A DNA stretch of 64,000 bases, taken from NCBI GenBank assembly GCA_030679255.1, contig JAUXTO010000042.1:44714-108713 (forward strand). The letters are read 5' to 3'. The DNA comes from Candidatus Gottesmanbacteria bacterium (GTDB taxonomy: Bacteria > Patescibacteriota > Microgenomatia > UBA10105 > UBA927). Position numbers and translations under genes: made by a program. A model generated the notes under the pieces. That model did not search any database. It was not told the DNA's origin and saw only the letters and a program-made list of their open reading frames with translations. Shown here in pieces: positions 4,358 through 21,595 of this stretch (position 1 is the stretch's first letter; each line of letters starts with the position of its first letter).

Positions 4358-4777
4358 ATGGCCAATCAAGTCACCTGGACATTGAGTGAAGGAGAGAATA
4401 AACAGTCCGTATTGATTCACATCGGAGATACGGTTCGTGTCCATTACAAACTGATTGAGCACGAAAAAGTAGCCGGCAAAACCAAGCGGGAAGTCAAAGA
4501 AGAAACCCGTGAACGGACCCAGGTCTTTGAAGGCATTTTGATCTCCATCCGCGGTAGTGGCGTCAACTGTATGTTTACGGTGCGTCATATGGGGACGGGC
4601 GCGGTAGGCATTGAACGTATTTTTCCGCTTATGTCCCCGTGGATAAGGAAAATGGAAGTGAAAAAGCACGGCGATGTCCGGCGTGCCAAACTTTATTATT
4701 TGCGCGGACGCCAAGGTAAGTCCGCTACCCGCATCGATGAGACAACGGTTCACATTCGACCCACCGGCGCCAAATAA
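4358..4777 (+). CDS. rplS: 50S ribosomal protein L19
   Basis: 139 aa; [12 protein letters not shown]...[16 protein letters not shown]...RRAKLYYLR matches bL19. Confidence 0.9.
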
Positions 4778-5141
4778 GAATTTCCACAAGAAACGCCTCG
4801 GCAAAATCGGCGAAGACCTTGCCTGTGAGTATCTCCTTAATCACCAGTACACCATCATTGAACGGAATTTCCAGAAACGGTATGGGGAGCTCGATATCAT
4901 CGTGATCAAAGACAAGATACTTATCTTTGTAGAGGTAAAAACGAGAATCGGCAGACGATTTGGGTTGCCGGAAGAATCCGTGACACCCCGAAAACTTCGC
5001 GAAGTTATTCAGACTGCTCATTACTACAAGCTCCTCCATCCCGAGCTACCCGAAAGGATGAGGATCGACGTTATCGCCATAGAACTTGAAACGGACGAAA
5101 CCCTCAAAGCCTTCCGCCACATCGAAAACGTGACTTCATAG
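4737..5141 (+). CDS. yraN: YraN/UPF0102 family endonuclease-like protein (start uncertain; ORF track starts at 4674)
   Basis: [34 protein letters not shown] pattern of UPF0102; first in-frame ATG downstream of plausible overlap with rplS at 4737. Confidence 0.65.
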
Positions 5142-5144
5142 TTG

Positions 5145-5855
5145 TCATTCCCGCGTAGGCGGGAATCCAGTATTTGGGCACGTCTTTGCCTTCCGGAATC
5201 CCGCTTTCACCGCTTCTTTTTCCGTACAAAACCAACGGTCGCCGTGGTGGAGTTCAAGCTTGGTAGTCGCATACGTTTGACAGCCGGGGAAATGATAGGT
5301 GGGGATGCCGTTCGTCGTAACGTTTGCTTTTATGGAACATGATGGGTTTTTTGGATTTGTTTCTTGCGTACATAAGTTACTGAATATACCGACCTTCTTT
5401 TTACGGGCTTGATTTGTGGCATCCTTTAATTCCTGTAAGTCCAAATTTTCGCGGTCATTCATTTCCGCCCACCCGGAGGCGAGCATCGCCGTACTCACGA
5501 GCCCTTCATCCGTATACACGAGGCCCATCGAACGGCTGCCGATGTGATAGAGGACTTTCACATAGAGCGCTTTGTCGAGGATGAGTTTCTCGAGTTCTTT
5601 TTTTGCCTCTTCACTGCCACATTGTCCCATTTCGGGAGTGTTGATGCCCGAGAGCCGGATATACTGTTTCTCTTTGGTCTCAAACGTATCGCCGTCAAAG
5701 ACGCGGATGGCTGTATAGCTGGGGACGGGAACCGATTTTCCCTTTCCGAAGGAGAGCATTAATGTTGCACCAATAGCAACCGTTGCCGCAGCCACTCCGG
5801 TGATTTTCAGTTTGGAGAACCGTGGTTTGATTATGAGATTTACTCTTTCTTTCAC
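5145..5855 (-). CDS. membrane-anchored thermonuclease (SNase-like) family protein with Cys-containing C-terminal domain
   Basis: 236 aa; N-terminal TM helix; VFDGDTFE...IRLSGINTPE SNase motifs; C-terminal ...GIPTYHFPGCQTY...RWFCTEKEAVKAGFRKAK domain. Confidence 0.65.
   Translation of the reverse strand: MKERVNLIIKPRFSKLKITGVAAATVAIGATLMLSFGKGKSVPVPSYTAIRVFDGDTFETKEKQYIRLSGINTPEMGQCGSEEAKKELEKLILDKALYVKVLYHIGSRSMGLVYTDEGLVSTAMLASGWAEMNDRENLDLQELKDATNQARKKKVGIFSNLCTQETNPKNPSCSIKANVTTNGIPTYHFPGCQTYATTKLELHHGDRWFCTEKEAVKAGFRKAKTCPNTGFPPTRE
5148..5165. terminator. possible bidirectional hairpin between convergent yraN and nuclease genes (overlaps last codons of nuclease ORF)
   Basis: ttcccgc-gtag-gcgggaa perfect 7-bp stem. 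Confidence 0.25.
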
Positions 5856-5897
5856 ATTTATATCGTAGTATACGAGCGCTGCTTGCCCTATGAAGGT

Positions 5898-6335
5898 TTA
5901 CCTGTGTTTATTTATCTCGAAGTGTCTATTTGTTATTGCACGAACACAAAAATATTTTCCCGCTATAAAATAAAATATTCTTGCGGTAGATTGAATTTTA
6001 TGCTCCATCAGATCCACGTCGGGACTTAAGTTGCTATACAATTTTTTATATGCTCCGCTATTGACTACCGATAGAATATCAATATTATTCTGTTTTAGGG
6101 TAATTTTATTGTAACAGTTTCCAACAGTGCGAAGGTTCATTAAAGCTTTTCGACCGCCATGTTTTTCTAGGTCTAGTATTTCACACAAATCATCACGGTA
6201 ATATTTGAACGTGATAGCAAATTTTTCATATTCCGGATCTTTTGATTGAGATATTTGAGCAGCAGTTTCGGGTATATATTTGTTTTCCCTTATAGGTTTG
6301 AATTGGGGTATTGGAGATGAGCCGTTGTTATGCAT
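5898..6335 (-). CDS. hypothetical protein; putative toxin partner of Panacea-domain protein (C-terminal R-x5-H HEPN-like motif)
   Basis: 145 aa; 8-nt overlap with upstream DUF4065 gene; C-terminal ...CVRAITNRHFE resembles Rx4-6H. Confidence 0.4.
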   Translation of the reverse strand: MHNNGSSPIPQFKPIRENKYIPETAAQISQSKDPEYEKFAITFKYYRDDLCEILDLEKHGGRKALMNLRTVGNCYNKITLKQNNIDILSVVNSGAYKKLYSNLSPDVDLMEHKIQSTARIFYFIAGKYFCVRAITNRHFEINKHR

Positions 6336-6804
6336 GTTTCAGGCTCTTGAAGTATTTTTTCATTTCCTTCTTGGATATGATATTGGTTGAGGCATCTCCT
6401 GCGCTTAATCCTTCGCGAGCCAACTGCCAGGGTTCTTCATTGTGCGTAAGGGTTTCAAGATATTCAGCTTCAAATTTGCCATACACCTTCCAAACTTCAT
6501 TTAACAGATCATCCGTCTTTAAGGAAGCAATTTCTTTGGGATCAATGATCACATTAATATTTTCATATCCGAATTTACGATATTGATCGTATATACTCGG
6601 TATGGCAGGGCCGTGTACCCAAGCCTGTATATCCTCTTTGAAAAGAGGTCTATCTTTTAGAGCTAAATACCACGCTTGGGCGTAGTACAATAGTTTTTGA
6701 AGTTTTTTGTTTGTGATTGTTTTGCCTTCAGTCGAAGCTTTCCAAATGAAGAATTTAGCAACGAGTGAGGCGCTAAAGGGAGTTTTTATTATCATAAAAA
6801 TCAC
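6328..6804 (-). CDS. Panacea/DUF4065 (GepA/SocA-like) domain protein, putative antitoxin
   Basis: 158 aa; KLQKLLYYAQAWYLALKDRPLF...W..GP motif characteristic of DUF4065/Panacea domain. Confidence 0.6.
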   Translation of the reverse strand: MIFMIIKTPFSASLVAKFFIWKASTEGKTITNKKLQKLLYYAQAWYLALKDRPLFKEDIQAWVHGPAIPSIYDQYRKFGYENINVIIDPKEIASLKTDDLLNEVWKVYGKFEAEYLETLTHNEEPWQLAREGLSAGDASTNIISKKEMKKYFKSLKHA

Positions 6805-6904
6805 CTCCTCTTATATTATTTTCATCTGTAAGAAGGATAATGTCAATATAACAATATTTGTTTTGGGAACCATTGATGAGAAAGTAACACATTTACTGAT
6901 ATTT

Positions 6905-6913
6905 TGCTATAAT
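6905..6913 (+). promoter_or_regulatory. extended -10 (TGcTATAAT) promoter for tRNA-Lys
   Basis: tgctataat 11 nt upstream of tRNA 5' end. Confidence 0.4.
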
Positions 6914-6923
6914 AATCGCCTAG

Positions 6924-6998
6924 GGGTCGGTAGCTCAACGGTAGAGCAGTAGCCTTTTAAGCTATTGGTTCTGAGTTCGAATCTCAGCCGACTCACCA
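6924..6998 (+). tRNA. tRNA-Lys (anticodon UUU)
   Basis: Manual fold: acceptor GGGTCGG/CCGACTC (one G-U), D-arm GCTC-AACGGTA-GAGC, anticodon stem GTAGC/GCTAT loop CTTTTAA, T-arm CTGAGTTCGAATCTCAG, encoded CCA. Confidence 0.85.
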
Positions 6999-8515
6999 AC
7001 TTTGGCAGAGGGGGTACTATACTCCCTAGTCATCGCATATCCACGCCCTAATTCTGGTGTTCGAAATTTTATTCCTTCATAGACAAGTCCATTAGGGAAC
7101 ATCGAACACCCGATAGCCAGTTTGCCCTCAAGAGAGGCATCAATCCATACCCGTTTCATGTGAGAGAAGTAGTATTTGATAAAATTGACGCTGGTATCGA
7201 CATCAAGACGATCTATCTTTTTTTCACTAACAATACCCCGCTTCACTGCTAGCTGGGTTTCAAGATCATCTTTCATGGCGAGATATTCTTTGTCTGTATA
7301 TACACCTTTGGCGTTCTTGAGTCTCACTGTCCTCAACAATTCTTCAAGCTCTGCAATATCCCGGTGAACCTGATCCTCTGTATGGATGAGAAGGTTATTT
7401 TGAGCCTGCCACTTCTCGAGCACCATCTCTCCGAACCACTGCATATAGCCTTCGTCAAAAGTGATTCCATCAACAAGCTTGAGAAATGCTTCCTCTATAC
7501 CGTTCTCGCCGTCCTTACCATAGGAAATCACCTTATGTACGCCTCTTGTTGGACAGGCATAATACCCATATTTTTTGTATTTTCCCTTACTCCATGCGGA
7601 GGAGAGTTTTTTTCCACACTCACACCGGAGAATCCCCCTCAATGGGAAGTCCTCCCGTTGTTTCGCATATCGTTCTAGTTTTGATGGTCGCTTCCCTGTA
7701 AGTATCTCCCGGACACGGTAGAAGGTATCCAGGTCGATCATCGCCTCTTGCTGTCCGGTGGCTTCCCCATACTTCTGTGATACGAGAATACCTGCATAAA
7801 ACTTGTTAGAAAATACCCTGCTTGCTGATTGACGGAGAAACTTCTTGCACCGGCTGTCGTGTGTCAAGGTAAGCCCTAGTTTATTTATCTCTCTGGCTAC
7901 CTGAATCATGGAGAGTTTTTCCTGATCGACCCTATGCCACATAGTCTGAATGACTGGAAACCATGTCGGGTCTTTAACTGCAATGCTTTTTCCGTTCACT
8001 TTTTGCATTAGATATCCGATAGGAGGCTTTGAAGTTATATGTCCTTCGGTAAATCTTCTTTTAAGAGAGTTGGATACGTTCTGTGCCCTTTCCTCATTTT
8101 GATATTGATTGAATGATGCAAGGATCGTTTCGATCATTTTCTCTGCTGGTCTGTCGCCGGATGGTTCTGTAGTGGATATGAGACTGACGCCATGCTTTGC
8201 CATGAGTTCACGGATCACCAGGTAATCGAGTGTATTCCTATTAAGCCGTGAGAAGGCATAGACAATGATTGCGGATATATCGTTTTTGGGGTCTTTGACA
8301 AACGTGAGCATCTCCTGAAGTTGAGCCCTATCGGTCGTGGAAGCGCTAACTCCTTCTTCTCTGAATGTTTTGGCTACGATAAACCCCAATTGATCTGCCT
8401 TCTTTTGACACAGATCCTGCTGACTATCCAAAGAATAGCCATCAATTTGCTTATCACTGCTCACGCGGACATAAGTAACACAGTTTTTCATGCGAGTAGA
8501 TTTTGGGCAGCACAT
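6962..8515 (-). CDS. large serine recombinase (integrase); C-terminal tail overlaps tRNA-Lys 3' end; true start may be 8491 (MKNCVTYVRV)
   Basis: 517 aa; resolvase catalytic motif YVRVSSDKQ, recombinase domain, C-terminal CxxC...C zinc ribbon (CECGKK...YYAC). Confidence 0.85.
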   Translation of the reverse strand: MCCPKSTRMKNCVTYVRVSSDKQIDGYSLDSQQDLCQKKADQLGFIVAKTFREEGVSASTTDRAQLQEMLTFVKDPKNDISAIIVYAFSRLNRNTLDYLVIRELMAKHGVSLISTTEPSGDRPAEKMIETILASFNQYQNEERAQNVSNSLKRRFTEGHITSKPPIGYLMQKVNGKSIAVKDPTWFPVIQTMWHRVDQEKLSMIQVAREINKLGLTLTHDSRCKKFLRQSASRVFSNKFYAGILVSQKYGEATGQQEAMIDLDTFYRVREILTGKRPSKLERYAKQREDFPLRGILRCECGKKLSSAWSKGKYKKYGYYACPTRGVHKVISYGKDGENGIEEAFLKLVDGITFDEGYMQWFGEMVLEKWQAQNNLLIHTEDQVHRDIAELEELLRTVRLKNAKGVYTDKEYLAMKDDLETQLAVKRGIVSEKKIDRLDVDTSVNFIKYYFSHMKRVWIDASLEGKLAIGCSMFPNGLVYEGIKFRTPELGRGYAMTREYSTPSAKVGESAEIRTQNQ

Positions 8516-8660
8516 TTATTGTTGCGCCCCTTTAGTTTATTTTGCAATAGGTCAAGAGCAACATCGGCCAGCCGGGAGAATTTTTGGATCATCTCGGCTA
8601 CTTCTTGATCGGTCATATCTTTGATCTTATCTCCAAGTAGTTGTCTGGTGCGTTCAGTGG

Positions 8661-9023
8661 TCATGGTGTTTGTCTCAAAATAGTCCGAAACGTCCGGACA
8701 CTGTCCAATAGTGATCGTGGCGGGACACTTGCCTTGTTGCTAATAAACGCATTGACTTCTTCTTGTGCTATGTCTCCCGGGGAGAATTCCAGAGTTACCC
8801 TGCCGGTCATGTCCCGTTTCTGGGATATGAGCTTGAGTATTCCGAGCCCCGTTAGGTATAAAAGATAGGTAGCGAGATCCTGATCGCTTGATTTATAGGT
8901 GTCCATGTGTTCTCCTTTTGGCTGCCGGTGTAAAGAATGGCCACAATTTGAGTAATAATCCTTCTTCTCGAACGGTAAACCACTGGTGATAGATGGATTC
9001 ATACTCACGACTATTACGATCAA
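8661..9023 (-). CDS. hypothetical protein (element-encoded)
   Basis: 120-aa ORF in recombinase-primase operon; likely start at internal Met (MDTYK). Confidence 0.3.
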   Translation of the reverse strand: MIVIVVSMNPSITSGLPFEKKDYYSNCGHSLHRQPKGEHMDTYKSSDQDLATYLLYLTGLGILKLISQKRDMTGRVTLEFSPGDIAQEEVNAFISNKASVPPRSLLDSVRTFRTILRQTP

Positions 9024-9270
9024 GAAGCTGTAAGCGTGTTCGTAGCTCTACCTCATGTTTTTTTATGCTCTTGTGTGGATCATCCGGAGCAATCTCACTC
9101 AATTCCTGTAAACTGGCAGATCGAACCCGTTGTCTATGAAGGAGTTCCTTATCTATCTGCTGTAAATTGGTCTTGTCCAAGAAGGCGGGCTTTTCTGCTA
9201 TCCGTTCACGAAGTCTTGTAGCCATGGCTGATAATTTTTCATCTGGTAGTGCGTAGAGTTGTAGTTTCAT
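8893..9270 (-). CDS. hypothetical protein (element-encoded)
   Basis: 125-aa ORF, 4-nt overlap with primase stop. Confidence 0.35.
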   Translation of the reverse strand: MKLQLYALPDEKLSAMATRLRERIAEKPAFLDKTNLQQIDKELLHRQRVRSASLQELSEIAPDDPHKSIKKHEVELRTRLQLLDRNSREYESIYHQWFTVREEGLLLKLWPFFTPAAKRRTHGHL

Positions 9271-10859
9271 TCAATTACCTCCAAATTGTCTAAGAATTCG
9301 TCTTGTTCACTTTTCTTGTCATTGGTGGAGGTTGGTGGAACTTCGTAGGCACGAGGTGGAGCTTCGAGGCCTGTTTTACTAAACTCTCTATGCGAGAAGT
9401 CTCTAGAGGTAGTTTGTGGAAATGACCCTTGAACCTCCACCGTAGCCTCAAAATTGGTTGACGAACCTCCACCTGACAACGAAATTCCCCGGTAGAAATT
9501 GCCCTTTTTGCCCTCTAAGCGCTTGTAGCGTTCTCCTATCTTTTGGTAGAAGGTTTTGCTACCTAGCGATTCCTTTTTATCGTACCCCTGCTCAATGGCC
9601 CAAGCCTGGTATGCTTTCCACAAATCTGATGCTTTTGTTTCCACGGTCGGGAGCAATTCACACTTCTCGTTGATAAAGTCCGCCAACGTATCGCTTTCCT
9701 GTTGGTATTCGCTTGTCGCCTCAAGCACACACTGTGGAATAGGCTGCAAGCCCTCTTGTTGCCACAACAAGCAGCCTTGAATGAGCCAGTTGAGTATTCC
9801 CGATTGTTCTGTCTGGAGCTTTTGGGTCAGCTTGAGGTCTTGTTGGGCCGTGGTAAAAATACGGGTAAAGGGGATCAGTCGAACCCGGCGCCAGAATCCA
9901 AGAGAATCATCGCTCACAAGCGGTTTATGATTGACGAATAACCATATTTTGCAATGGGGCTCAAAGGTAAACCCCTCCGCATACAGGTAACGTGCCGTGA
10001 TTGCATCACCACCGGATATGTTTTTGAGCCTAGATTCATCTATCTTGCGTCCACCTAGCACCTCAGACGATACCACCATGCGCTTGAATTCCAGGGATGC
10101 TAGGTCGTTTGATGTGGTCGTTTGATTCCGTTGAAAGGTATGAAATGGTGCGTCGTGACTGTAATCTCCAAGTACATTCCGAAGTGTTGAAAAGAGGACG
10201 CTTTTACCGTTGCTACCGATCCCATAACAAAAGAACACGACCTGTTCCGATGTATCGCCCGTGAGGGTGTACCCAAGTGCCTTGTGAACAAAGCGAATAA
10301 GCTCCTCATTGCCCTCAAAGATTTCACCGATAAACTGTTCCCACCGTGGGCAGGTAGCAGCCGGATCATAAGATATATGCGTCGACATGGTGATCCGGTC
10401 TTCTTGTTTTCCTTCTCGGAACGATCCGTCATTGAGGTCAATAATCCCGTTTTCACAAGCGAGGAGATTTTTGTGCTGATCCCATTCCTGCCCGTTGTCT
10501 GCAATTGGAAGAAGATTTTTTGCGATTCCTGTTGACGCATCAAGACGCATCTTAGATTCACTTTGTATGGCCCATTTAGCTACTGCGGTACGCTTTGATA
10601 AATCTTCAATATCTTTTGCATCGCTATAGAGTTGTTTGACTGCCAGCACCGCAAATCGGTTAATCTCTCCGGAATCATCGGGACACCATCGGGGGGATTT
10701 CCAAAGCAGCCATCGCTTGCGGCGGTGATCGAAGCGCACCCTATCCCCAAACAGTTCAACGATCTTTTCAGCGTTAGACGTATCGGTGCATCGGATAGGT
10801 TCACTACTTGGGTTGATTAGCTTCATTGTTTTATCGATAATTTGGTCTGCTGTTTTCAT
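9267..10859 (-). CDS. D5/P4-family primase-helicase C-terminal (NTPase) protein
   Basis: 530 aa; Walker A FFCYGIGSNGKSVL typical of phage/plasmid primase P4-family C-terminal domain. Confidence 0.75.
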   Translation of the reverse strand: MKTADQIIDKTMKLINPSSEPIRCTDTSNAEKIVELFGDRVRFDHRRKRWLLWKSPRWCPDDSGEINRFAVLAVKQLYSDAKDIEDLSKRTAVAKWAIQSESKMRLDASTGIAKNLLPIADNGQEWDQHKNLLACENGIIDLNDGSFREGKQEDRITMSTHISYDPAATCPRWEQFIGEIFEGNEELIRFVHKALGYTLTGDTSEQVVFFCYGIGSNGKSVLFSTLRNVLGDYSHDAPFHTFQRNQTTTSNDLASLEFKRMVVSSEVLGGRKIDESRLKNISGGDAITARYLYAEGFTFEPHCKIWLFVNHKPLVSDDSLGFWRRVRLIPFTRIFTTAQQDLKLTQKLQTEQSGILNWLIQGCLLWQQEGLQPIPQCVLEATSEYQQESDTLADFINEKCELLPTVETKASDLWKAYQAWAIEQGYDKKESLGSKTFYQKIGERYKRLEGKKGNFYRGISLSGGGSSTNFEATVEVQGSFPQTTSRDFSHREFSKTGLEAPPRAYEVPPTSTNDKKSEQDEFLDNLEVIE

Positions 10860-11398
10860 ATCAATCTCCTCACCGCATCCGGAAAACTATACTTGTCGTG
10901 ATTCATCAAGTAGTCGATGGCTGACCCACCGTGAGCAGCACATCCAAAGCAGTGGTAGGAGTTGTCTTTGGTATAGAAGTAAAAAGACGCGGTTCGTTCT
11001 TCATGGAAGGGGCAGAGTGCCTTGAAGTTATGCCCGGAACGGATAAGGCGGCCGTCATAGAGTTCGTGGGTGGGATATTCCTTTGCCCTGTCTATCTGGT
11101 CTTGAGAGAGAAAATTAGATGGCTTTGATTCCTGTGGCAAACACCGAAGGTACAAATCGCACCAATAGGCCAACTCTGCTTTTAACTGATCCCGTTTCCG
11201 TTGTTCTGCAAACTGGATATACCACGGTGCGCGGTTGGTTCCCATCCTGTGGCCAAGATACTCTCGTTGGGCAGGTGTGAAACGGCGGGAGTTGTGTACC
11301 ATGGTGGTGTACTCCCAGACCTTCTCCTTGAAGATTGGCTTAATGTCGTCTTTGCCGAATATGTCTATAGTTTGGTTCATTGTCATAATACTCTCCAT
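10856..11398 (-). CDS. CHC2 zinc-finger primase N-terminal domain protein
   Basis: 180 aa; CPFHEERTASF...YHCFGCAAHG zinc-binding motif of DnaG-type primases; ATGA overlap with D5 ORF. Confidence 0.7.
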   Translation of the reverse strand: MESIMTMNQTIDIFGKDDIKPIFKEKVWEYTTMVHNSRRFTPAQREYLGHRMGTNRAPWYIQFAEQRKRDQLKAELAYWCDLYLRCLPQESKPSNFLSQDQIDRAKEYPTHELYDGRLIRSGHNFKALCPFHEERTASFYFYTKDNSYHCFGCAAHGGSAIDYLMNHDKYSFPDAVRRLI

Positions 11399-11573
11399 TT
11401 CTGCCCACTAAAAAACCCCCGTACCATTGGACTAATAAAATCCAATCGTACAGAGGTTGGTCAGACGGTTACCTTATACCGAAGGGTAGCTCAGGATGTC
11501 AGCTTTCTCAGCTCGACTATCGTCCGTTACTGTTCTTTCAACTGACGCCCAAAGACTTTGTGCTATGTGAACG

Positions 11574-11876
11574 TCAGATTTTCTTTTTATCTTTACCCAT
11601 CATTTTAATTTTATCGTCGTGTATAGCAGTAAGTGACGGTGAACGCATAAACTTCATAATGTTTTCACCAAGAACAACATTCTTTCGTCCAACTTTAGAC
11701 GAAACTAGTTTTCCCGATTTCATAAGTTTATAAATAGAACGAACATCGACGTTCATCGTTTCAGCTACTTCGTCCGGTCCGTATACTTTAAGTGGCACTA
11801 TTGGTTTAATATCCATAATCGCAGTATACACCCCATTATCTCTAAATGCAATAGGGCAAAAAGCAATTGAATACAT
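11574..11876 (-). CDS. excisionase/AlpA-like HTH DNA-binding protein (start may be internal MDIKPIV at 11816)
   Basis: KVYGPDEVAETMNVDVRSIYKLMKSGKL helix-turn-helix resembling phage Xis/AlpA family. Confidence 0.45.
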   Translation of the reverse strand: MYSIAFCPIAFRDNGVYTAIMDIKPIVPLKVYGPDEVAETMNVDVRSIYKLMKSGKLVSSKVGRKNVVLGENIMKFMRSPSLTAIHDDKIKMMGKDKKKI

Positions 11877-12032
11877 CTACCTCTTGACACTGATCTCTAC
11901 AGGGTATACGCTTGAGTAGCTTAGAAAGAACCGGTGAGAACATATTGTATAATTACTACGCCATCAGGCGAGATCTTTCTAAGCAATCGATTCTCACCAA
12001 CCTGATGGCAATTTTTGTGGAAAGGAGACAAC

Positions 12033-12152
12033 ATGAGAAATATACTAGCTGACCGGGCCTTCCTGCTCCGGACGATTCAGGCGCTCATCTGTGGCGCGAT
12101 GGCGTTTCTCGCATCTGGGAGTTTAGGGTTGAAAATCGGGAGGATTCTATGA
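12033..12152 (+). CDS. 39-aa hydrophobic peptide (possible)
   Basis: ATG preceded by aaaggagacaac; MRNILADRAFLLRTIQALICGAMAFLASGSLGLKIGRIL; ATGA overlap with next ORF. Confidence 0.2.
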   Translation: MRNILADRAFLLRTIQALICGAMAFLASGSLGLKIGRIL

Positions 12153-12367
12153 GCAGACGCACCGTATTACTCGACAGGATATACAAGCGATTTGCCACAC
12201 CGGAAGACCTACGGATTGTGGATGAGCTATATGCCAAAGGTTCCAAAGGTGTTGCTGTCCGCAAGATGCTTCAAGACATCCTTGAGAGACTGGATACCAA
12301 AGAATGGAATGCGGAGAAAGCACGGAGAATAGATGATTTTGATATCCCACGACTTCTTGCAGCGTGA
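12149..12367 (+). CDS. hypothetical protein (element-encoded)
   Basis: 72-aa ORF with RBS gggagg. Confidence 0.35.
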   Translation: MSRRTVLLDRIYKRFATPEDLRIVDELYAKGSKGVAVRKMLQDILERLDTKEWNAEKARRIDDFDIPRLLAA

Positions 12368-12426
12368 GGCTAGGGGTAGAGGTTCTGCTATGTAGAGGCG
12401 CTTCGGGAAACCGGGGCGCTTTTAGT

Positions 12427-12996
12427 TCAATTAGCAACAACAAGCGCTGTTACAACAGTTGGATGTTTATAAAATTTCCCCTCAAACGCATATACCCCTG
12501 CATCCCATTGCCCTTCGGCAAACAACACTTCTGCGTGTTTAGGGCTATTGATCCATGCGTGTACAATTGTTTCTGAATTAGTAGGACCTAGCGCAAGATT
12601 TTCCTTCATCCTGTCATACCGTAGCCGCAGCCTGGTAATAATGTTTTTCATTGTCGCACCGCTTCGCGTGGCTTCGTGGCTAAACTCGCTATTTTCAAGC
12701 ATATCTTTTGCCCGGAGATAGGCAACGTAAGATAGATCGTGGCTTTCAACAAAAGGAGGTAAATTATTCTCTTGCCTGGCTTGGTTTATGAGAGCAAACA
12801 TTTGTTTTACATCAACGGACGTCGTTGATGAAGGCGGTTCCGGGAGTACCGCAGAAGAAAAAACGTATTGAATGTCACCTTTAACCTCATATACAAGAAC
12901 GCCAAGCGCGCCAAAAGCCAGAAGAATTGCTGCAAGCGTAAGGAGTATCGGGAGTTTTAGGCTTATAGGACGCTTCATACATCTATTATACTCCAA
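12427..12996 (-). CDS. CAP/SCP (YkwD-like) domain protein with N-terminal signal anchor
   Basis: 189 aa; N-terminal TM; WINSPKHAEVLF...GVYAFEG resembles CAP-domain SPxHxxN(I/L)L motif. Confidence 0.55.
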   Translation of the reverse strand: MEYNRCMKRPISLKLPILLTLAAILLAFGALGVLVYEVKGDIQYVFSSAVLPEPPSSTTSVDVKQMFALINQARQENNLPPFVESHDLSYVAYLRAKDMLENSEFSHEATRSGATMKNIITRLRLRYDRMKENLALGPTNSETIVHAWINSPKHAEVLFAEGQWDAGVYAFEGKFYKHPTVVTALVVAN

Positions 12997-13224
12997 ATCG
13001 AATGACTAGCTGTTTACGTAGCATCGTGGTGTTGTGGTGGATGTTTTCTATGACTTATCGTAAAAGGGTAGAATATACCTCTTTTGAATATAAAGCCGTT
13101 TTACCCCTACAGATGAGGCTGGATAAACGGTAACTTACCCTCTTACAGGCGATCCACTATGGAAAGATTAGATAGGGGATTCTTCTTATTGTAAACATAG
13201 GATTATTCTTTATACCATCTTCTC

Positions 13225-13419
13225 ATGGCAAATTGGGATGATATTTTACAGGAATTAAAGAGCATTAAAGACCTCTTGCAACACAGTACGATCACGGTTG
13301 TTTCCAACTCGATAAGCCCTTCACAATCACCAAGTGTCTCGGTTTCTCCAAGCGTCAGTCCGTCAGTGAGCGTCAGTCCAAGCTACTCTCCCTCAATTTC
13401 TCCGTCAGTCTCCTCGTAA
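13225..13419 (+). CDS. small protein with (V)SPS repeat tail (possible; may be repeat artefact)
   Basis: 64 aa; C-terminal SPSQSPSVSVSPSVSPSVSVSPSYSPSISPSVSS encoded by GTCAGTCC-type DNA repeats. Confidence 0.2.
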   Translation: MANWDDILQELKSIKDLLQHSTITVVSNSISPSQSPSVSVSPSVSPSVSVSPSYSPSISPSVSS

Positions 13420-13544
13420 TACAAAAGAGTGTCTTCGTCTCACAATCTACCCTCATATATGAATTGTACGACTCAATAAGGAGCGTAATCTCGTGCCTGT
13501 GAGGTCGTAGGATGCCCTAGGAGGCACGAAGTGGGGTCAGGTGG

Positions 13545-16500
13545 CTATAGTTCCTTCTTAATTTTGGGGTACTTTATAGAAGTGATAGTTTTTAGCTTTG
13601 GCACCTTATATTTCTTGAATTTGGCAAGTCGCTTGGGTTTCTTCAGAGTAAACTTTTTCAGTGCAATCATTTTGACCTTAGGAATCTTCTTGACGGTCAA
13701 CCTTGCTTTGGAGGTAGAAAGATCAGAAAGCACTTCTTTGACTTGGGATACATCAATAACACCGGCGGTCACCGCAGCACTGATCTTGTTCTTTTGTGTC
13801 GTGAGCGCTGACTTGTATTTTGAGAGCGCTTGTTTATCTACCTCATAATTTCCCACCATCTTTGGCTTTTGAGGGATATAAGAAACGTCTACAGAAGTCA
13901 CTGTGCCTGAAGGGGAAACATAGAAAAGCTTTGTCCCACTGCTTGCGGGTTGTCCTGTGAGGCCTACGGTTTGTCTCGCCTTGAGATCTTCTTTGGTTTC
14001 TGCTTGTTGATCCATAAAGTCACTATATGTTTTGGTTCCACCACGGACCAACTCGGATTGATTGGCTGATAGGGGCCGGGCATTACTATCAAAGTACGTC
14101 TGTGCTTGTGGAGTAGAGTATTGTCCGAACAACATGGACTTTACATAGTTGGGGAATGTTTGTTCTACTGGGAAACGGATATTTCCAGTCGGCGTTGTTG
14201 ATTCCCCCTTATTGTAGGATTGTAGACCTTCAACGGTTTTTCTTATCTGTACGCCACCAGGAAAAAACGCTGGTGCTACTTTGATGAGATTGCGCTTGCC
14301 TTCTTCTCTCGTTTGTTCTTCGCCAAAAAGCATTTGTCCTGTTGCTTGTCCCGCCTGCAACGATGGGGTAAGTCTAGGGTTTATTGGTAATAGGTCTAAC
14401 TTCATCCCGAATGCGTCCTTGAGTATTTTTGCCATAACGAGAGTTGCTCCGACGTAGCGCACCAATCCCGCAATATCCCTTTGTGCAACCTTAGTGAGCA
14501 GGAATTCTCCTTGCTTAATGTTGAACGACTGGAACTGAAGAAGTGTTTTGTTGATATCGCTTGATAGCGCAAGGGGTGTGTCGATACTGCCGAACACAAA
14601 TTGTGTTTTCCGAACGATACCCTTTGCGTACTCTATCGCCTGTTGTTCACTCATGTTTTGTGAAAGTGCCTTGGCTTTCGCGCCGTAATAAGCAGCACCA
14701 CGATTGATCTTTTCCGCTTTATCGAACAGGTAGAACAGGCCTTCGTCGAGCTTTGTGAGGATGTTTTTGTAGACGCCGATATTCCTATCCTGAATGAATG
14801 AATCTTTCAGCACTCCTACGCGTTCAAGTTCGTTTGATCCCCAGTTTCGGGCAAGCTTCAAGTAGCCTGTGGCTGTCCAACGTTCCCCAAGCTCTGCGTA
14901 AGTGTTGGCGCCCTGGGAAAGATTTCGAAGCGCCGAAGATACATTCAATCCCAGTGTCCCGCGATAGACTGTCTGCCTGATCGATTGAGATAGAGCCGTT
15001 ACTGGTCGGGGACCGAAGCGGTACCCGATAGGAGTGCTCTTGATGAAATTATCAATGAGGGTATCTATCTCCGTAGGACGAAGATTGATTCTGTCCGTGA
15101 GTTTTTGTAGATATTTATATTGTGACAGTTCGAGGCTTGGTGATTTTGCCTTTAATGCTTCCAGGGCAGGGTCAAGATTATATTTCCTCACTGCCCGTTT
15201 GGTATAAGCATCGAGAGCCGCCCATGTATCTTTGAGATAGTCAATCCTGTCGCTTTTACGCATGAGCAGGAACGGATCGTAGACCCCACCCGCGACCTTC
15301 TGGTCGATAAGTTTAGCGAGGGCAGGGTCAAACTCTCCCTCAACCGCGCCCTTGGTCCAGATGTGGGTGATGTAATTACTTATCTGTTTAGATGGTGGCA
15401 GTTTTAACTTCGTTGCCCAGTCCGCTAAATACCCTCTGATCTCCATTGCAACCCTGCCTTCAACGGGATTGAGTCCTACATTTTCCCCGTCCAAAGCTCT
15501 GAATATCCGTTCGTTGCTCTCAGGCGGAACCCGCTTCTGCCAGTCTGATATTCTCTTTATTTCATCCGGTAATTGCGTGAGATACGATTCGTACTGTGAA
15601 CGAAGATACTTCGCTTCATCTCCCAGCCCGATCTTTTGAAGTACCTGTTCGGGCGTTCTCAAATAATCAACAATGTTTACCTTGTTTTGTACGTTGGTGA
15701 ACGTGGGGTCAATGACGTTTTGTACACGTCCTATTGCTTGCGGGTCGTTGGCGGTAAATGCTTTTTTTACATATCTCTTGGCCTCCTCGACATTTGCGGC
15801 AACCATCTTGTCATATGAGGAATGATCGAGCGGGCTTATCCCGTCATCAAGGATTCGTTGTGCTTCTTTGGCGTCAATAAACCGTATCTGACGGGCGGTA
15901 AATCCACGACTTCCTAACTCTTGGGGATAGTTCAGAAGATTTGACAACCGTTCATTCGGAGTTTTAGGTACTTTAGAAAGTGCTTCATCAATGGTAAATA
16001 TTTTGTCCTCTATGGTACGAATAATACTCCCGACTTGGGTATCATTCTTCATAGTCTGAATGATTGCATAATCTTTTTTGTAGTCTCCTGAACCACCGAC
16101 TAAATTCACTAGTTCCTTGTTGAGTGTTGCCCGTAACGCTTGTAAGTCGTCTTTTGCTCCCGTCTTTATGAGCTTATCCGCAAACTCGTTGTACACGATT
16201 GACGCTTCTTCTGGTGTTTTGGTGAGGGAAAGACGACCACTAAGTGCGTTTTGAATCTCTGGTGTTTTGGTAAACCCCATGATCGCCAGTCGATCTGTCT
16301 CCTGGAGTTGTTTTCCTGCTGCTATTTCTTTTGGGGTAAATGTTGTTTGTCCTCTGTTTGCTTTTGTTAAGAACGATTGCTCCTCCGGTGAGTAAGAGCC
16401 TCCCGTGAGCAGATTCAAGCTAAACTTGGCTATATCCCCAGTCTTTACATCAAAGCCTTCTGGTTTAATAGGATTTCCTACACCCCATTTTAATGTGGGA

Positions 16501-16823
16501 AGCTTATTCAGTTGTGCGTCGATCTGTGGTTGATAGTCCGTCATCACTGCACGGGAGGGGATGATGTTACTCGAATATATTCCTTGTTTCTGAAGGCTTT
16601 GCTGAGAAATTGTATTTTGCTTTAATTGATTGGAAAAATTAGTTACTGCATCATTGACCCTGTTCACAAAGGGTTGTACCTGGGGCTGCAGTTGTTTCTG
16701 TACCCACGACGCTGGTGTTGGATTCTGCTGGATAAACGACTGAGCCTGACCGAACAGTTTACTTGCGGTATTTTGAATTTTCGTTGCTACTTGTTGACTT
16801 AGAGTGTCCCATAGATTAGCCAT
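13545..16823 (-). CDS. very large Q-rich hypothetical protein (virion structural-like); start set at MANLWDTLSQ, ORF track extends to 16991
   Basis: About 1090 aa; 8-nt overlap with stop of upstream gene; Q/N-rich N-terminus, K-rich C-terminus; no family recognised by eye. Confidence 0.5.
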   Translation of the reverse strand: MANLWDTLSQQVATKIQNTASKLFGQAQSFIQQNPTPASWVQKQLQPQVQPFVNRVNDAVTNFSNQLKQNTISQQSLQKQGIYSSNIIPSRAVMTDYQPQIDAQLNKLPTLKWGVGNPIKPEGFDVKTGDIAKFSLNLLTGGSYSPEEQSFLTKANRGQTTFTPKEIAAGKQLQETDRLAIMGFTKTPEIQNALSGRLSLTKTPEEASIVYNEFADKLIKTGAKDDLQALRATLNKELVNLVGGSGDYKKDYAIIQTMKNDTQVGSIIRTIEDKIFTIDEALSKVPKTPNERLSNLLNYPQELGSRGFTARQIRFIDAKEAQRILDDGISPLDHSSYDKMVAANVEEAKRYVKKAFTANDPQAIGRVQNVIDPTFTNVQNKVNIVDYLRTPEQVLQKIGLGDEAKYLRSQYESYLTQLPDEIKRISDWQKRVPPESNERIFRALDGENVGLNPVEGRVAMEIRGYLADWATKLKLPPSKQISNYITHIWTKGAVEGEFDPALAKLIDQKVAGGVYDPFLLMRKSDRIDYLKDTWAALDAYTKRAVRKYNLDPALEALKAKSPSLELSQYKYLQKLTDRINLRPTEIDTLIDNFIKSTPIGYRFGPRPVTALSQSIRQTVYRGTLGLNVSSALRNLSQGANTYAELGERWTATGYLKLARNWGSNELERVGVLKDSFIQDRNIGVYKNILTKLDEGLFYLFDKAEKINRGAAYYGAKAKALSQNMSEQQAIEYAKGIVRKTQFVFGSIDTPLALSSDINKTLLQFQSFNIKQGEFLLTKVAQRDIAGLVRYVGATLVMAKILKDAFGMKLDLLPINPRLTPSLQAGQATGQMLFGEEQTREEGKRNLIKVAPAFFPGGVQIRKTVEGLQSYNKGESTTPTGNIRFPVEQTFPNYVKSMLFGQYSTPQAQTYFDSNARPLSANQSELVRGGTKTYSDFMDQQAETKEDLKARQTVGLTGQPASSGTKLFYVSPSGTVTSVDVSYIPQKPKMVGNYEVDKQALSKYKSALTTQKNKISAAVTAGVIDVSQVKEVLSDLSTSKARLTVKKIPKVKMIALKKFTLKKPKRLAKFKKYKVPKLKTITSIKYPKIKKEL

Positions 16824-18078
16824 AGATCGGTTGACCGTTTTGATCGTATCCTTTGAATACTTTTCCGGATATTTGTCCTGTGTAATTTGGTGTGTTTTGT
16901 CCGTTTGATGAATTGATTGATAACGGTGATGCTGGAGTGGTTGTCGTTTGATTGAAGTAGTTATTGAGTGCTGATTGTGAGCCTTGACCACTCATTTGCA
17001 TCTGTCGGGCATAGGTATCTAACGCTGTTGCAGCCTGGCTTCGTTGAAGTTCTAGGGTTTGCTCAAATTGAATTTTCTGAGAGTTTATTTGAAACACTTC
17101 ATTCCGGAGAGTCTGTAAAGCAGAGAGAGAAGCTTGGGCTTTTGCAGATGCTATTTGTGACCTGCTTTGTGAAATAGAAAGAAGTTTGTTTTGAAAGTCA
17201 CTCTTTGCTTGAGAGAAAGCAGAATCCGTATCGTATTTTAGCTTCGTCTTAGCGGTAGAGTAGCCACGATCAAGATCATATTTTTGAGTGTCAATCTGTG
17301 CCATAGTGTCGCTATAGGATCGCTGTGTTAGTCCCATCTGACGTTGCTGTTCAACAGATGAAAGTTCACTGGCTGCTTCACCTGCGGACGTACTACCACC
17401 AAAGCGTTGCTGATATCCACGACGTAATTCGTCATACAGTCTTCGTGCTGCTGTAAGCGCATCTTCTTTTCGATACCCTGCGCTTGTTGCGTTGCGATCA
17501 AGAGTAGAAAGACCAGAGGTATTTTGATCATTGAGCATCTGAGTGTTCACATCGAATTGCCCTTGGATTGATTTTTGTACATCGGGATATTGAGCATTCA
17601 GAGTATTTTCAGCTTCTGTGAGATATTGAAACGAGGGGTTATACAGTGCATCAATCTGGGATTGAATATCGGGCTGGCCTTGGCCTTGTTGTGCCATGAG
17701 TTCTCGATAGCGGGATTCTTGTGAGGGGTTACGATCCATCTTAGATAATTGTTGAAGTTCTGAATCACTTGGGCCTGTGGGGGTTGTGTTCGCTCTTGTT
17801 GTTACTCCATTAACCTGACCCGTTCCTGTGTTATTGTTTCCACCGGTAACCATTCCTGAGGGCTTGGGTTGTATGTAAGGGGTGTCGTATGTTCCGGTAA
17901 CTGGTTTTCCTGCGATCGTGTTAGCTAGACCTGTGACGGGTCCAGCGCCTACGACATTAGGAGTCACCATGCTTCCAATATTTGCCACGGTTTGACCCAG
18001 TGCCTGACGTGCCTGCCCAGAACCAAATTGATTGACTGCAAGATCGTACCATCCACCTAAATTTTGAATTGCTCCCAT
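16816..18078 (-). CDS. Q/N/S/T-rich hypothetical protein (start at MGAIQNLGG with aggaga RBS)
   Basis: About 420 aa low-complexity protein; RBS AGGAGAA 5 nt upstream of ATG at 18078. Confidence 0.45.
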   Translation of the reverse strand: MGAIQNLGGWYDLAVNQFGSGQARQALGQTVANIGSMVTPNVVGAGPVTGLANTIAGKPVTGTYDTPYIQPKPSGMVTGGNNNTGTGQVNGVTTRANTTPTGPSDSELQQLSKMDRNPSQESRYRELMAQQGQGQPDIQSQIDALYNPSFQYLTEAENTLNAQYPDVQKSIQGQFDVNTQMLNDQNTSGLSTLDRNATSAGYRKEDALTAARRLYDELRRGYQQRFGGSTSAGEAASELSSVEQQRQMGLTQRSYSDTMAQIDTQKYDLDRGYSTAKTKLKYDTDSAFSQAKSDFQNKLLSISQSRSQIASAKAQASLSALQTLRNEVFQINSQKIQFEQTLELQRSQAATALDTYARQMQMSGQGSQSALNNYFNQTTTTPASPLSINSSNGQNTPNYTGQISGKVFKGYDQNGQPIYG

Positions 18079-18286
18079 ATGTTCTCCTGTGCCTAATCCT
18101 ATCCAACCGATATTTATGTTTACAATGACCAAAAATTAAGTCCTGGAATAACGGGAGGAAGTAAAATGAAAATTTGGCCTCTCCATTAAGATACACGCCT
18201 CCCGTTGTCTCAAATCTTAATCCTAAGGGGCGTTTTGGTCGTCACCTCACGCCCCATGATTATTAGTTGTTTTATAAAAGAACCAA

Positions 18287-18502
18287 TTACACACCTTTAG
18301 AATGAATCACTGAGCTTGCTTTTCCTTTGCCTGCTATGCCTGCTGTTTTCTGTAACTTGGAAGTCAATGCTCCTGTTTTGTTTGCATTTGAGACATACTT
18401 TGCATGTGCCAGCGACAGGTCACCCGCATGAACGTACTTAGCTTGTTTTGCTCCTACGTTTGCCGCTACGTCTTTACTCCATCCTTGTTTATCGATTGCC
18501 AT
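18287..18502 (-). CDS. small K/A-rich hypothetical protein
   Basis: 71-aa ORF in TerL-downstream block. Confidence 0.3.
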   Translation of the reverse strand: MAIDKQGWSKDVAANVGAKQAKYVHAGDLSLAHAKYVSNANKTGALTSKLQKTAGIAGKGKASSVIHSKGV

Positions 18503-18520
18503 ATAGTATTTTCACCTCCC

Positions 18521-18724
18521 TTATGTAAATCTTCTTTTACCTACGAAATCAATCAACATTTGAATGATCTCTTTTTTACTTAACTGCTCACCATTAGCGA
18601 TGATGAAAGTAAAAATCTCATCCTCTATGGTCCTTTCACCAATCTGTGCCTGTCCATGATTTGCCGTATTAGCCCACTGTGTGGCTACGGAATCCATGTG
18701 TTCTAAAACGTTATATGTTGTCAT
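18521..18724 (-). CDS. small hypothetical protein
   Basis: 67-aa ORF. Confidence 0.3.
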   Translation of the reverse strand: MTTYNVLEHMDSVATQWANTANHGQAQIGERTIEDEIFTFIIANGEQLSKKEIIQMLIDFVGKRRFT

Positions 18725-18748
18725 ATAGTTTTTCCTTTCTAAATGTTT

Positions 18749-18931
18749 TTATATTTTTGCTTTTAACACTCTCCATTCCATCTCGTCTCTTGTAAAAAGT
18801 TTCTTGTCGATATTTACCCGCATGGGTGGATCTCTCGGTTCACCTTCTGTTTTTCTAATGGCATCGTACTTCTTGATCCGTTCCATAATCTCAACATCAT
18901 TTGCCGTTGGTTCTGTTGTTTGTTTTGTCAT
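18749..18931 (-). CDS. small hypothetical protein
   Basis: 60-aa ORF. Confidence 0.25.
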   Translation of the reverse strand: MTKQTTEPTANDVEIMERIKKYDAIRKTEGEPRDPPMRVNIDKKLFTRDEMEWRVLKAKI

Positions 18932-18993
18932 ATCTGTTTATTCACCTCCTCTAAATTGTGAGATAAAGCTATTCATGTTTGCACGAGCAAAAA

Positions 18994-20298
18994 TCATCCG
19001 ATTCTCCATTTCTTTTTTAGTTCTTTTGCTTTTTGTAGCGATTGGTATGAGTTTGTCTTTGGTGTCTGATCAAGATTCCAGCAGTAATATTCAAACGCTC
19101 TCATGGCGTGGGAGTATTGGTTGTGAATAGGTATCTCGTTGGATTGGTTTACCATGGTCTCTCGTTTTTGAGGGTAACAATAGTTCACAAGACAGTCTCG
19201 AAACCGAGAACAATTTGGATTTGAGGATGATACATATAGCCGTGACATAAAACGATGCGCATTCCGTATCTGCGTTGGAATATCAGGGATAAACGAAGTC
19301 TTTACATAGTGTCCGAGTCTTGCAAGTTCCTCTATTGGTGATTTGCCGGTTGTTAAGTCTCTTGCAGTTCCCGCAATATCACCTGCTTCAAAGGAAGGAA
19401 TTATATATGGCTTTGCACTGACAGCTTGGACAAAGTGGTCAATATTGGCATTTGAATCTTCGATATAGTCAATCAAGCGGATTTCTGAACCTCTTTGCTG
19501 AAGAAATAGAATAACCGTTGGATCATTCACGCCAAAGTCCCACGCTAAATGAAGAGGAAGCAAAGGATCATAGTCAAAAGGAATGTATCGTGTCTCCATG
19601 TCCCAGTCTTCATACACAACACCGTGAGGCTTTTCGTATTCTGCAAGAATTTCCTGTCGATAATATCCCATGCCCATTTGTTTATATTCAGTTATCAATG
19701 CTTGTAATTCCTGGGGATCAAGTTCAGGATTATCTGAAGAAGTAAAGTGAAAACACTTGAACAGACCGCTTTGTTCTAGTGAGTAGAGTTGTCTAAATCC
19801 TTTGGGAGTTCCTGCCATGATAGCGGGAGCTTTATTGGTTATAAGGTTTGGACGAATAACTGTTGGCCATATATTTGATTCCCAATCATCAATCTCATCA
19901 CCCGCGAACGCTCCCCAATTTGAAATACCACGAAGTGCCTCCGCATTTTCAACACCAAGTAGTTGTACTTTCCCACCATTAGGAAGTGATATAGAGAGTT
20001 CCGCCTCATTCTTTTTATAGGGAAGTTTTATCCCTGTGAAATGGTCAAGCATCCGTTGTACATGGTCTGACCACACGATGTTTTTACTCTGTACTCTGTT
20101 TGGTGAAACATACGGGCATGTGAGGTTCGTTTTAAGTGCCATTTCAAAAAGCCATGAGATAAGAAGGCTTGTTTTTCTCCATTTACGGCCTGCACGAAGT
20201 TGAATAAACCGAAAACCATCATCAAGAGCCTTCAATACTTCCTTTTGTCCTGAGTGTGGTTTTGTCGGATAGAATGTATTTACTTTTATTTCGCTCAT
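18994..20298 (-). CDS. terL: terminase large subunit
   Basis: 434 aa; FIQLRAGRKWRKTSLL Walker-A-like motif and overall layout of phage TerL (ATPase + nuclease). Confidence 0.75.
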   Translation of the reverse strand: MSEIKVNTFYPTKPHSGQKEVLKALDDGFRFIQLRAGRKWRKTSLLISWLFEMALKTNLTCPYVSPNRVQSKNIVWSDHVQRMLDHFTGIKLPYKKNEAELSISLPNGGKVQLLGVENAEALRGISNWGAFAGDEIDDWESNIWPTVIRPNLITNKAPAIMAGTPKGFRQLYSLEQSGLFKCFHFTSSDNPELDPQELQALITEYKQMGMGYYRQEILAEYEKPHGVVYEDWDMETRYIPFDYDPLLPLHLAWDFGVNDPTVILFLQQRGSEIRLIDYIEDSNANIDHFVQAVSAKPYIIPSFEAGDIAGTARDLTTGKSPIEELARLGHYVKTSFIPDIPTQIRNAHRFMSRLYVSSSNPNCSRFRDCLVNYCYPQKRETMVNQSNEIPIHNQYSHAMRAFEYYCWNLDQTPKTNSYQSLQKAKELKKKWRIG

Positions 20299-20299
20299 A

Positions 20300-20740
20300 T
20301 TATTCTCCCCTAGTTAGAACAACCTCAATGTTTGTTTGTTGCATCTGTGCTGGTATATCGGTTTCTATACCGAGGAGTTTTCCGAGTTTGTCGTGATAAT
20401 CTTTTCGTGTCTTATGATCCGCATACATCTCACCGGAGAATTGATCTCGTTTAGTAGCTTCTACCCCCTGACGAAGCTGATCAAAGTATTTCTCATGATC
20501 TAGACCATAGGCTTGCATGATCTCTTGTTTGTTAACTCGTGCTAACCATCGTGATCCCAAGACCCGTGAGGAGTGATCGTCAACAGAAGGGTGCAATTCC
20601 TTGTATGCTTTTGAGGCATTTAGTCCGCACTTCACCCACGTAAGATAAAAAAGCATCAGATCTAAGTTTCCATCAAACGCTTTCTCGAGATCCTTAATGT
20701 TAGGTGTTATTTTATTTTTCATTGGTATCTTTCTTCTCAA
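20300..20740 (-). CDS. terS: terminase small subunit-like HTH protein
   Basis: 146 aa immediately upstream of terL; CGLNASKAYKELHP resembles TerS N-terminal HTH. Confidence 0.5.
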   Translation of the reverse strand: MRRKIPMKNKITPNIKDLEKAFDGNLDLMLFYLTWVKCGLNASKAYKELHPSVDDHSSRVLGSRWLARVNKQEIMQAYGLDHEKYFDQLRQGVEATKRDQFSGEMYADHKTRKDYHDKLGKLLGIETDIPAQMQQTNIEVVLTRGE

Positions 20741-20927
20741 AGTATCGAAAGCGGTGCTGTACTATTTTCTTTGGATCGATCTCAGGATAATCAGAGACCA
20801 TGTCTCTCCCCCCAAGTCGAAGGAAAAGATAACACCGTAAACAAAGCGTATCGACGATATCGTGCATAGTTACACGAAAAAAATACTCTCCAACCACTTG
20901 TGTACAATAGAAACATACCCGCTTCAC
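20712..20927 (-). CDS. hypothetical protein
   Basis: 71-aa ORF overlapping neighbours in operon. Confidence 0.2.
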   Translation of the reverse strand: MKRVCFYCTQVVGEYFFRVTMHDIVDTLCLRCYLFLRLGGRDMVSDYPEIDPKKIVQHRFRYFEKKDTNEK

Positions 20928-21223
20928 TTTGCCCCTTCCTGATTTAGTTTTGTCACAATTTCGTCTGCGGTGTTCAGTGTCAACTCGGTATTACTCTCGG
21001 ATATCATGGCCGCTCCGTCATTCACCGTTTGCATAGCCTCATTGTTTTTTTTCATCTGCTCTAGCAAGCTCATGTTTCGCAGCGCTAGTTCGTTTGAGAG
21101 CTTGAGGACACAGTCAATGTGCCACGACCCCTGTTGAAGACCAATCTTTGTGGTGAGTTGTGTTTCTCCCGTGCCACAATAAGGGCAATTGCCGTCGCTT
21201 ATATGCTCCATTGAATCGTTCAT
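20924..21223 (-). CDS. zinc-ribbon hypothetical protein
   Basis: 99 aa; CPYCGTGE ... C pattern. Confidence 0.35.
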   Translation of the reverse strand: MNDSMEHISDGNCPYCGTGETQLTTKIGLQQGSWHIDCVLKLSNELALRNMSLLEQMKKNNEAMQTVNDGAAMISESNTELTLNTADEIVTKLNQEGAK

Positions 21224-21316
21224 ATTGACCTCCTCATTGAATAATAAAAAAGAGATATGTATGTTTACAAGTGCCCTTTATTGCATACATACAAGTTCCC
21301 GATATAGGATTGATTT

Positions 21317-21595
21317 ATGAATACATTACAGACGGAATTCCACCAGAAGGTGAACGAGAGAAACCGGATCATCTTTGAGCGGTACAAAATGGTATCGGGG
21401 GATGTGCTTTCCATAGAATATGGTATCAGTCACCAACGGATTCATCAGATTGTTCGTAAAATAGAAAAAGAAACCGGTGTTAGCATGCGCCAGATTATCA
21501 GAGAGCGAAAGCGGGTTGCCGTGGTTGATGCGTGGAGGGCAAAGTCAATGATTTATAAGCATGACTGGGGGTCGGTACAGTATCAACCTGTTTAG
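21317..21595 (+). CDS. hypothetical HTH-like protein
   Basis: 92 aa; LSIEYGISHQRIHQIVRKIEKE resembles sigma-70 region-4-type HTH. Confidence 0.35.
   Translation: MNTLQTEFHQKVNERNRIIFERYKMVSGDVLSIEYGISHQRIHQIVRKIEKETGVSMRQIIRERKRVAVVDAWRAKSMIYKHDWGSVQYQPV

Follow-up and report, generated by a model that had tools for sequence, protein, structure and literature searches.

A Panacea gene coupled to an unannotated partner with a predicted RelE/ParE-like fold in a Candidatus Gottesmanbacteria genome

The panA-panT gene pair

We analyzed a 64,000-nucleotide (nt) stretch of DNA from a Candidatus Gottesmanbacteria bacterium (contig JAUXTO010000042.1 of assembly GCA_030679255.1, forward-strand positions 44,714 to 108,713; hereafter the window), in which two minus-strand open reading frames (ORFs) that run in the same direction, 6328..6804 (158 amino acids, aa) and 5898..6335 (145 aa), form what we interpret as a toxin-antitoxin (TA) pair of the PanAT type. 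The two genes are referred to as panA and panT, respectively. The product of the first ORF carries a KLQKLLYYAQAW...WVHGP signature and had been predicted to be a Panacea (DUF4065) protein; a profile search upholds this assignment, as it matches PF13274 (SocA_Panacea) with an E-value of 7.7e-20 and 72.3 bits (gathering cut-off 25.7), as well as phrog_1281 (1.8e-46). It also matches the NCBIfam model NF047745 (SocA_antitoxin, 9.4e-21), but the score of 74.3 bits is below the 190-bit equivalog cut-off, and the window PanA is therefore not considered a SocA orthologue. PanA is a standalone Panacea domain without a DNA-binding or other accessory domain.

The ORF proposed for the antitoxin is real, but its length of 158 aa is probably an overestimate. 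GTG 6804 falls within a Shine-Dalgarno sequence (GAGGAGGTGA, 6810-6801), while ATG 6795 comes 5 nt after it; because of this spacing, and because homologues are 155 aa long, ATG 6795 is probably the true start, which gives a 155-aa protein encoded by 6328..6795 on the minus strand. The region upstream of panA (6801..6846) holds this Shine-Dalgarno sequence and a putative sigma-70-like promoter at 6846-6818 (TTGACA, a 17-nt spacer and GAAAAT; 10/12 in a consensus scan), both being pattern matches only. A search for inverted repeats upstream of panA returned only a weak one, 70% complementary, and we claim no operator there.

Direct reading of the sequence confirms the predicted 8-nt overlap between both ORFs (ATGCATAA, 6328..6335), within which the panT ATG occupies 6335-6333 and the panA TAA occupies 6330-6328. 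On the minus strand, the junction reads ...AAA CAT GCA TAA, with the panT ATG embedded in it, and an overlap of identical length is found at the loci of two related pairs (P0002 and P0004). An overlap of this kind, where panT starts before panA has ended, implies that translation of the two genes would be coupled.

A protein family coupled to Panacea

The 145-aa PanT protein (5898..6335, minus strand) had been described as having no obvious family, and it indeed has no match in Pfam or PADLOC. Its alignment to the NCBIfam MAG6450 family (NF046006; E=0.0046, 17.5 bits) lies below the 40-bit cut-off of that model, and phrog_8366 is matched at 0.065. When 5.8 billion proteins were searched by a word index, only five relatives were retrieved, while an exhaustive hidden Markov model search with an alignment of those five retrieved 334 cluster representatives at E<=1e-3, of which 209 reach E<=1e-10; nearly all are 135-170 aa long. 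As clusters were counted at 50% identity, the family comprises at least 334 of them. Repeating the word-indexed search with a 138-sequence PanT alignment returned 11 proteins and added almost nothing. The four relatives that belong to named reference genomes all come from metagenome-assembled genomes (MAGs) of Patescibacteria, or candidate phyla radiation (CPR), bacteria (Roizmanbacteria, Berkelbacteria and two unclassified).

The coupling of PanT to Panacea extends across this family. Gene context was read for P0002 (six contigs), P0005, P0004 and P0006, as well as for four GTDB species representatives, the distant members P0124, P0143 and P0100, and a near-identical relative on contig L020. 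In all 20 loci, which encode 12 distinct PanT proteins, the partner is directly preceded by a same-strand Panacea ORF that touches or overlaps it, including loci whose PanT proteins are only 24-26% identical to that of the window. The original prediction of a Panacea gene paired with a cognate downstream partner is supported by these loci, which show the pairing to be conserved well outside the window genome. The two proteins diverge in parallel, as PanA identities to the window of 80, 74, 54, 43 and 39% are accompanied by PanT identities of 62, 57, 44, 24 and 26%, respectively. The genes around the pair vary between lineages, which argues that panA and panT travel together as a cassette. The locus criteria of Kurata et al. 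call for a gap of at most 100 nt and for at least two species; here the genes overlap by 8 nt, and four GTDB species representatives are among the 20 loci.

A further relative, P0019 (NGX32563.1, from a Candidatus Anoxychlamydiales MAG), appears to be a single chain of 306 aa that joins an N-terminal Panacea domain to a C-terminal PanT domain. If it is a genuine fusion, it lends indirect support to a physical association between PanA and PanT. This apparent fusion occurs outside the CPR.

Predicted fold and proposed mode of action of PanT

AlphaFold2 run on six sequences yielded an unusable model with a predicted local distance difference test score (pLDDT) of 44.5; run on the 138-sequence alignment, it gave a pLDDT of 90.9, a predicted template modeling score of 0.76, and pLDDT values >96 from residue 41 onward. 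The model begins its confident part with a short strand (residues 40-42), continues with three helices (60-72, 77-82 and 94-100) and ends in three consecutive strands (110-115, 118-125 and 128-135), and so corresponds to the description of the RelE/ParE fold, in which an N-terminal strand and helices are followed by a three-stranded antiparallel C-terminal sheet. From its secondary structure and pLDDT, we delimit a RelE/ParE-like core at aa 38-145 (5901..6224). It is preceded by an N-terminal extension at aa 1-37 (6225..6335; pLDDT 71-76), which is defined by the alignment consensus, is mildly acidic (isoelectric point, pI, 5.7), contains IP motifs conserved across the family, and is not present in the classical RelE, YoeB and HigB toxins. 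PanT as a whole is basic, with a pI of 9.3 (9.5 for its core), close to the family median of 9.2.

Structural comparisons with this model ranked the insecticidal toxin Txp40 first (score 9.1), below which lies a near-continuous series of RelE/ParE-superfamily toxins: Staphylococcus aureus YoeB (7.9), Pyrococcus horikoshii RelE (7.8), Escherichia coli HigB (7.8, with a root-mean-square deviation of 2.3 Å over 84 residues), Methanocaldococcus jannaschii RelE3 (7.0), Proteus vulgaris HigB (6.9), YafQ (6.8), E. coli YoeB (6.7) and ParE2 (6.2), with GraT, PrpT and PfiT lower in the list. A search of viral folds in BFVD with PanT returned nothing meaningful. When the 138 family members were scanned against Pfam at E<=10, the sole recurrent family was Gp49 (PF05973), which we take to belong to the RelE/ParE clan; it was matched by 5 of the 138 at sub-threshold values (best E 0.0066). 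The predicted RelE/ParE fold of PanT is well supported by the model, while strict homology to the RelE/ParE superfamily is not demonstrated.

Residue conservation was counted in the same 138-sequence alignment. His138 is present in all 138 members, and Tyr96 (136), Arg119 (135), Cys51 (133), Tyr46 (132), Phe121 (131) and Glu111 (128) are nearly as well conserved. In the window, the core codons for Tyr96, Glu111, Arg119 and His138 lie at 6050-6048, 6005-6003, 5981-5979 and 5924-5922 on the minus strand, respectively. In the PanT model, Glu111 starts the first strand of the sheet, Arg119 starts the penultimate strand, and His138 is positioned just after the last strand, so that by analogy the three residues may recall Glu46, Arg65 and His83 of YoeB. 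An arrangement of the YoeB type is typical of ribosome-dependent mRNA endonucleases, and the ParE gyrase poisons are not known to have such a set of conserved catalytic residues. The presence of a conserved Glu/Arg/His set leads us to favor an mRNA-cleaving translation inhibitor over a gyrase poison.

The reading that we favor, and hold to be moderately probable, is a chromosomal PanAT-type (type II) TA system in which an mRNA-cleaving PanT with a RelE/ParE core is neutralized by bound PanA. Both proteins would be made from a single bicistronic transcript with coupled translation. Free PanT, with its RelE/ParE-superfamily core behind the ~37-residue N-terminal extension, would most likely enter the ribosomal A site and cleave mRNA, and this cleavage would halt translation. 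PanA would counter the toxicity of PanT through direct protein-protein binding. This mode of neutralization is proposed on the basis of published work on other PanA proteins, in which direct binding of PanA antitoxins to their toxins and neutralization by a Panacea domain on its own are both described (PMC8832971, PMC10440598) and in which PanAs co-purify with their toxins (PMC8832971). Where an antitoxin consists of Panacea alone, contact with the toxin is made by that domain, and one such contact involves the N-terminal unstructured region of the toxin (PMC10440598). The ~37-aa N-terminal extension of PanT is a candidate for such a contact with PanA.

Several results weigh against this reading. 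No significant sequence-profile link between PanT and any RelE/ParE family was found, and searches of the Protein Data Bank with PanT sequence profiles gave chance matches only. Foldseek recovers the same set of toxins, but with every E-value >1e-3. Aligning the 138-sequence PanT profile by hhalign to E. coli YoeB, to a YoeB alignment and to E. coli HigB returned probabilities <1%, a negative that is weak because the templates are of low diversity (the 30 sequences of the YoeB alignment are all >=81% identical to the first). The HigB query was confirmed as PF09907, and the YoeB query as the E. coli YoeB cluster. In these non-significant alignments, the local registers are those expected from the structures: Arg119 falls in register with Arg65 of YoeB, and His138 and Glu140 with a His-x-Glu sequence near the C terminus of E. 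coli HigB. The parallel between the Glu/Arg/His set and YoeB is one of strand register only. Moreover, the fold is common to the ParE gyrase poisons, and the fold alone cannot fix the target.

Among the alternatives, a primarily anti-phage function by abortive infection is unlikely but survives best. The pair would then be a sensor and an effector, with the RelE-fold protein released or activated once Panacea has detected a phage cue, a biological role that differs from the one favored here and is compatible with the same toxin chemistry. A sensory role of Panacea was proposed by Ernits et al. 2023 (PMC10440598), and the apparent single-chain protein P0019 is reminiscent of fused TA defense proteins such as CapRel. 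Furthermore, genes for an EcoRI-like methylase and a GmrSD_N/HNH protein come after the distant P0124 pair (L014:1705-3887) in a setting that resembles a defense island, and the cassette in the window adjoins an occupied integration hotspot. Against this role, PADLOC has no match, no PanT homologues were found among INPHARED phages, PLSDB plasmids or IMG/VR, and ordinary chromosomal genes make up most of the contexts seen.

The main rival concerning the toxin itself is a ParE-like action, in which the same fold would poison DNA gyrase and PanA would again neutralize by binding. We judge it improbable: ParE proteins rank below the mRNases in the structural matches to PanT, and the PanT family differs from them in having the invariant His and near-invariant Arg expected of a nuclease. 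A bolder proposal, put forward here with low confidence, is that PanT represents a distinct, unnamed clade of RelE-fold effectors that, through its family-specific N-terminal extension, has become obligately tied to standalone Panacea, even up to fusion in one chain, and that the pair acts as an anti-phage or anti-mobile-element switch with Panacea as its sensor rather than as a classical addiction module. If true, the pair would be one of few defense-type modules characteristic of the ultra-small CPR genomes.

The preferred reading of neutralization by binding also contrasts with a type VI mechanism like that of SocAB, in which PanA would not sequester the toxin but, acting as an adaptor for proteolysis, would hand it over to a Clp protease. 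The closest NCBIfam model for PanA is SocA_antitoxin, but its score is far under the equivalog cut-off, the partner has a RelE-like fold and is not SocB-like, and stable complexes with the cognate toxin are described for the PanA proteins tested (PMC8832971), which together make an adaptor role very unlikely.

Least tenable of all is the initial suggestion that the C terminus of PanT bears the R-x4-6-H motif of HEPN-domain RNases, such as HepT of the MNT-HEPN pairs. A literal Arg132-x5-His138 is present in the window PanT, and His138 is invariant, but Arg132 is kept in only 13 of the 138 members (115 have Val or Ile), Arg137 is variable, only 14 of 138 carry an Arg at any of the positions -5 to -7 relative to His138, and 57% of shuffles of the window PanT contain R-x4-6-H. 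Because Arg132 is unconserved and the motif is so frequent in shuffled sequences, we consider R-x5-H a chance occurrence. HEPN domains are all-alpha, whereas the PanT model is alpha/beta, and neither structural match list, including that of Foldseek, contains a HEPN protein. A HEPN identity, refuted at the level of both motif conservation and fold, was rejected and retains almost no probability.

The pair resembles systems that are already catalogued. PanAT systems were defined, and 88 PanT clusters catalogued, by Kurata et al. (2022, PNAS), whose Dataset S1 includes three RelE/ParE-like clusters marked 'notest': T14 (HigB-2 by HHpred at 99.7%, with members from Saccharibacteria of the CPR and gaps of -8 and -11), T28 (YoeB/ParE, 89%) and T59 (ParE_toxin in CDD). 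In these clusters, as in the window, the Panacea gene comes first, a small toxin follows after a short overlap or gap, and the predicted toxin fold is that of RelE, HigB, YoeB or ParE. Compared by description only, the window family differs from them in having no match at the level of CDD, Pfam or NCBIfam, in its ~37-aa N-terminal extension, and in a PanA that lacks a helix-turn-helix N-terminal domain. The expectation of a toxin of a new type is consequently overstated, given the RelE/ParE-like PanTs of Dataset S1; PanT is an unnamed, unannotated sequence family within an already catalogued kind of system. From the YoeB, RelE, HigB and YafQ mRNA endonucleases, PanT is set apart by the absence of significant profile similarity, by its N-terminal extension, and by its Panacea antitoxin in place of YefM, RelB, HigA or DinJ. 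The MAG6450 family offers a further connection, as NF046006 is weakly matched by 37 of the 138 members (best 9.2e-07, all below 40 bits) over the PanT core at aa 54-138. MAG6450 of Mycoplasma agalactiae is a conserved hypothetical protein with no described function (PMC3179502), and an M. agalactiae PanA-PanT pair sits in T1, the largest cluster of Kurata et al. 2022. These sub-threshold matches hint at a distant relationship between the PanT family and T1.

The understanding of TA systems is unchanged by this pair. It is a clear case in which a standalone Panacea domain is paired with a predicted RelE-fold toxin, a combination so far known from prediction. In addition, the PanT family, which is sizeable and unannotated and goes undetected by Pfam, NCBIfam, PHROGs and PADLOC at their thresholds, now has a predicted fold, with Glu111, Arg119 and His138 as targets for mutagenesis.

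Genomic setting of the cassette

The pair lies between an SNase-like gene and a tRNA-Lys gene, as had been described. The former (5145-5855, minus strand; PF00565, 5.9e-08) encodes an SNase-domain protein whose N-terminal segment is hydrophobic, and the latter, tRNA-Lys(UUU), occupies 6924-6998. The segment between them (5856..6923) can be viewed as a mobile cassette of low GC content, 37-38% as compared to 47-57% in the housekeeping block on its left, which contains adenylosuccinate lyase and synthetase, IMPDH, L19, UPF0102/YraN and the SNase-domain protein. The corresponding segment of the related contig (L020:2978-4045) is 98-99.6% identical over the cassette and its upstream spacer, whereas the flanking genes are 82% (L19), 81% (YraN) and 74% (SNase) identical. 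The contrast between a cassette at ~99% and neighboring core genes at 74-82% directly indicates that the cassette was recently exchanged or replaced by horizontal transfer at a fixed locus. The SNase gene is on the same strand as panT and lies 42 nt downstream of it (18 nt in L020); it diverges much faster than the cassette (74% vs 99%), and we do not count it as part of the module because it is absent beside the more distant pairs.

The prediction that tRNA-Lys is an integration hotspot is substantiated by L020, where the counterparts of window positions 7004 and 21698 are directly joined in an empty site (L020:2342-2977). The empty site defines an island of 14.7 kb at ~7000-21700, which does not include the TA cassette; the latter lies immediately beside the island, 5' of the tRNA. 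The attL site is at the tRNA-Lys 3' end near 6990-7004, and attR is near 21698-21710; a search for attR found no second 30-nt copy of the 3' end of tRNA-Lys, and the island ends were taken from the empty-site relative instead. The island encodes a large serine recombinase (6962-8515, minus strand; Resolvase, Recombinase and Zn_ribbon_recom domains), a D5-like primase-helicase (9267-10859; D5_N/DUF5906/Pox_D5), a CHC2 zinc-finger protein (10856-11398), a CAP-domain protein (12427-12996), and a 1148-aa protein with no Pfam match (13545-16991). The 3' end of the recombinase ORF overlaps the tRNA-Lys 3' end by 37 nt (6962-6998) on the opposite strand. The tRNA ends in ...CTCACCA when the site is occupied and in ...CTCACTA when it is empty, which indicates that the tRNA 3' end provided by the island differs slightly from the original one.

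Within the left block, the L19 and UPF0102-YraN (NERD-like) ORFs are found at 4358-4777 and 4674-5141, such that the YraN ORF overlaps the end of L19 by ~100 nt. The Pfam match to YraN begins at aa 46, and the L020 gene encodes 134 aa as compared to 155 aa in the window; the true YraN start is probably located further downstream.
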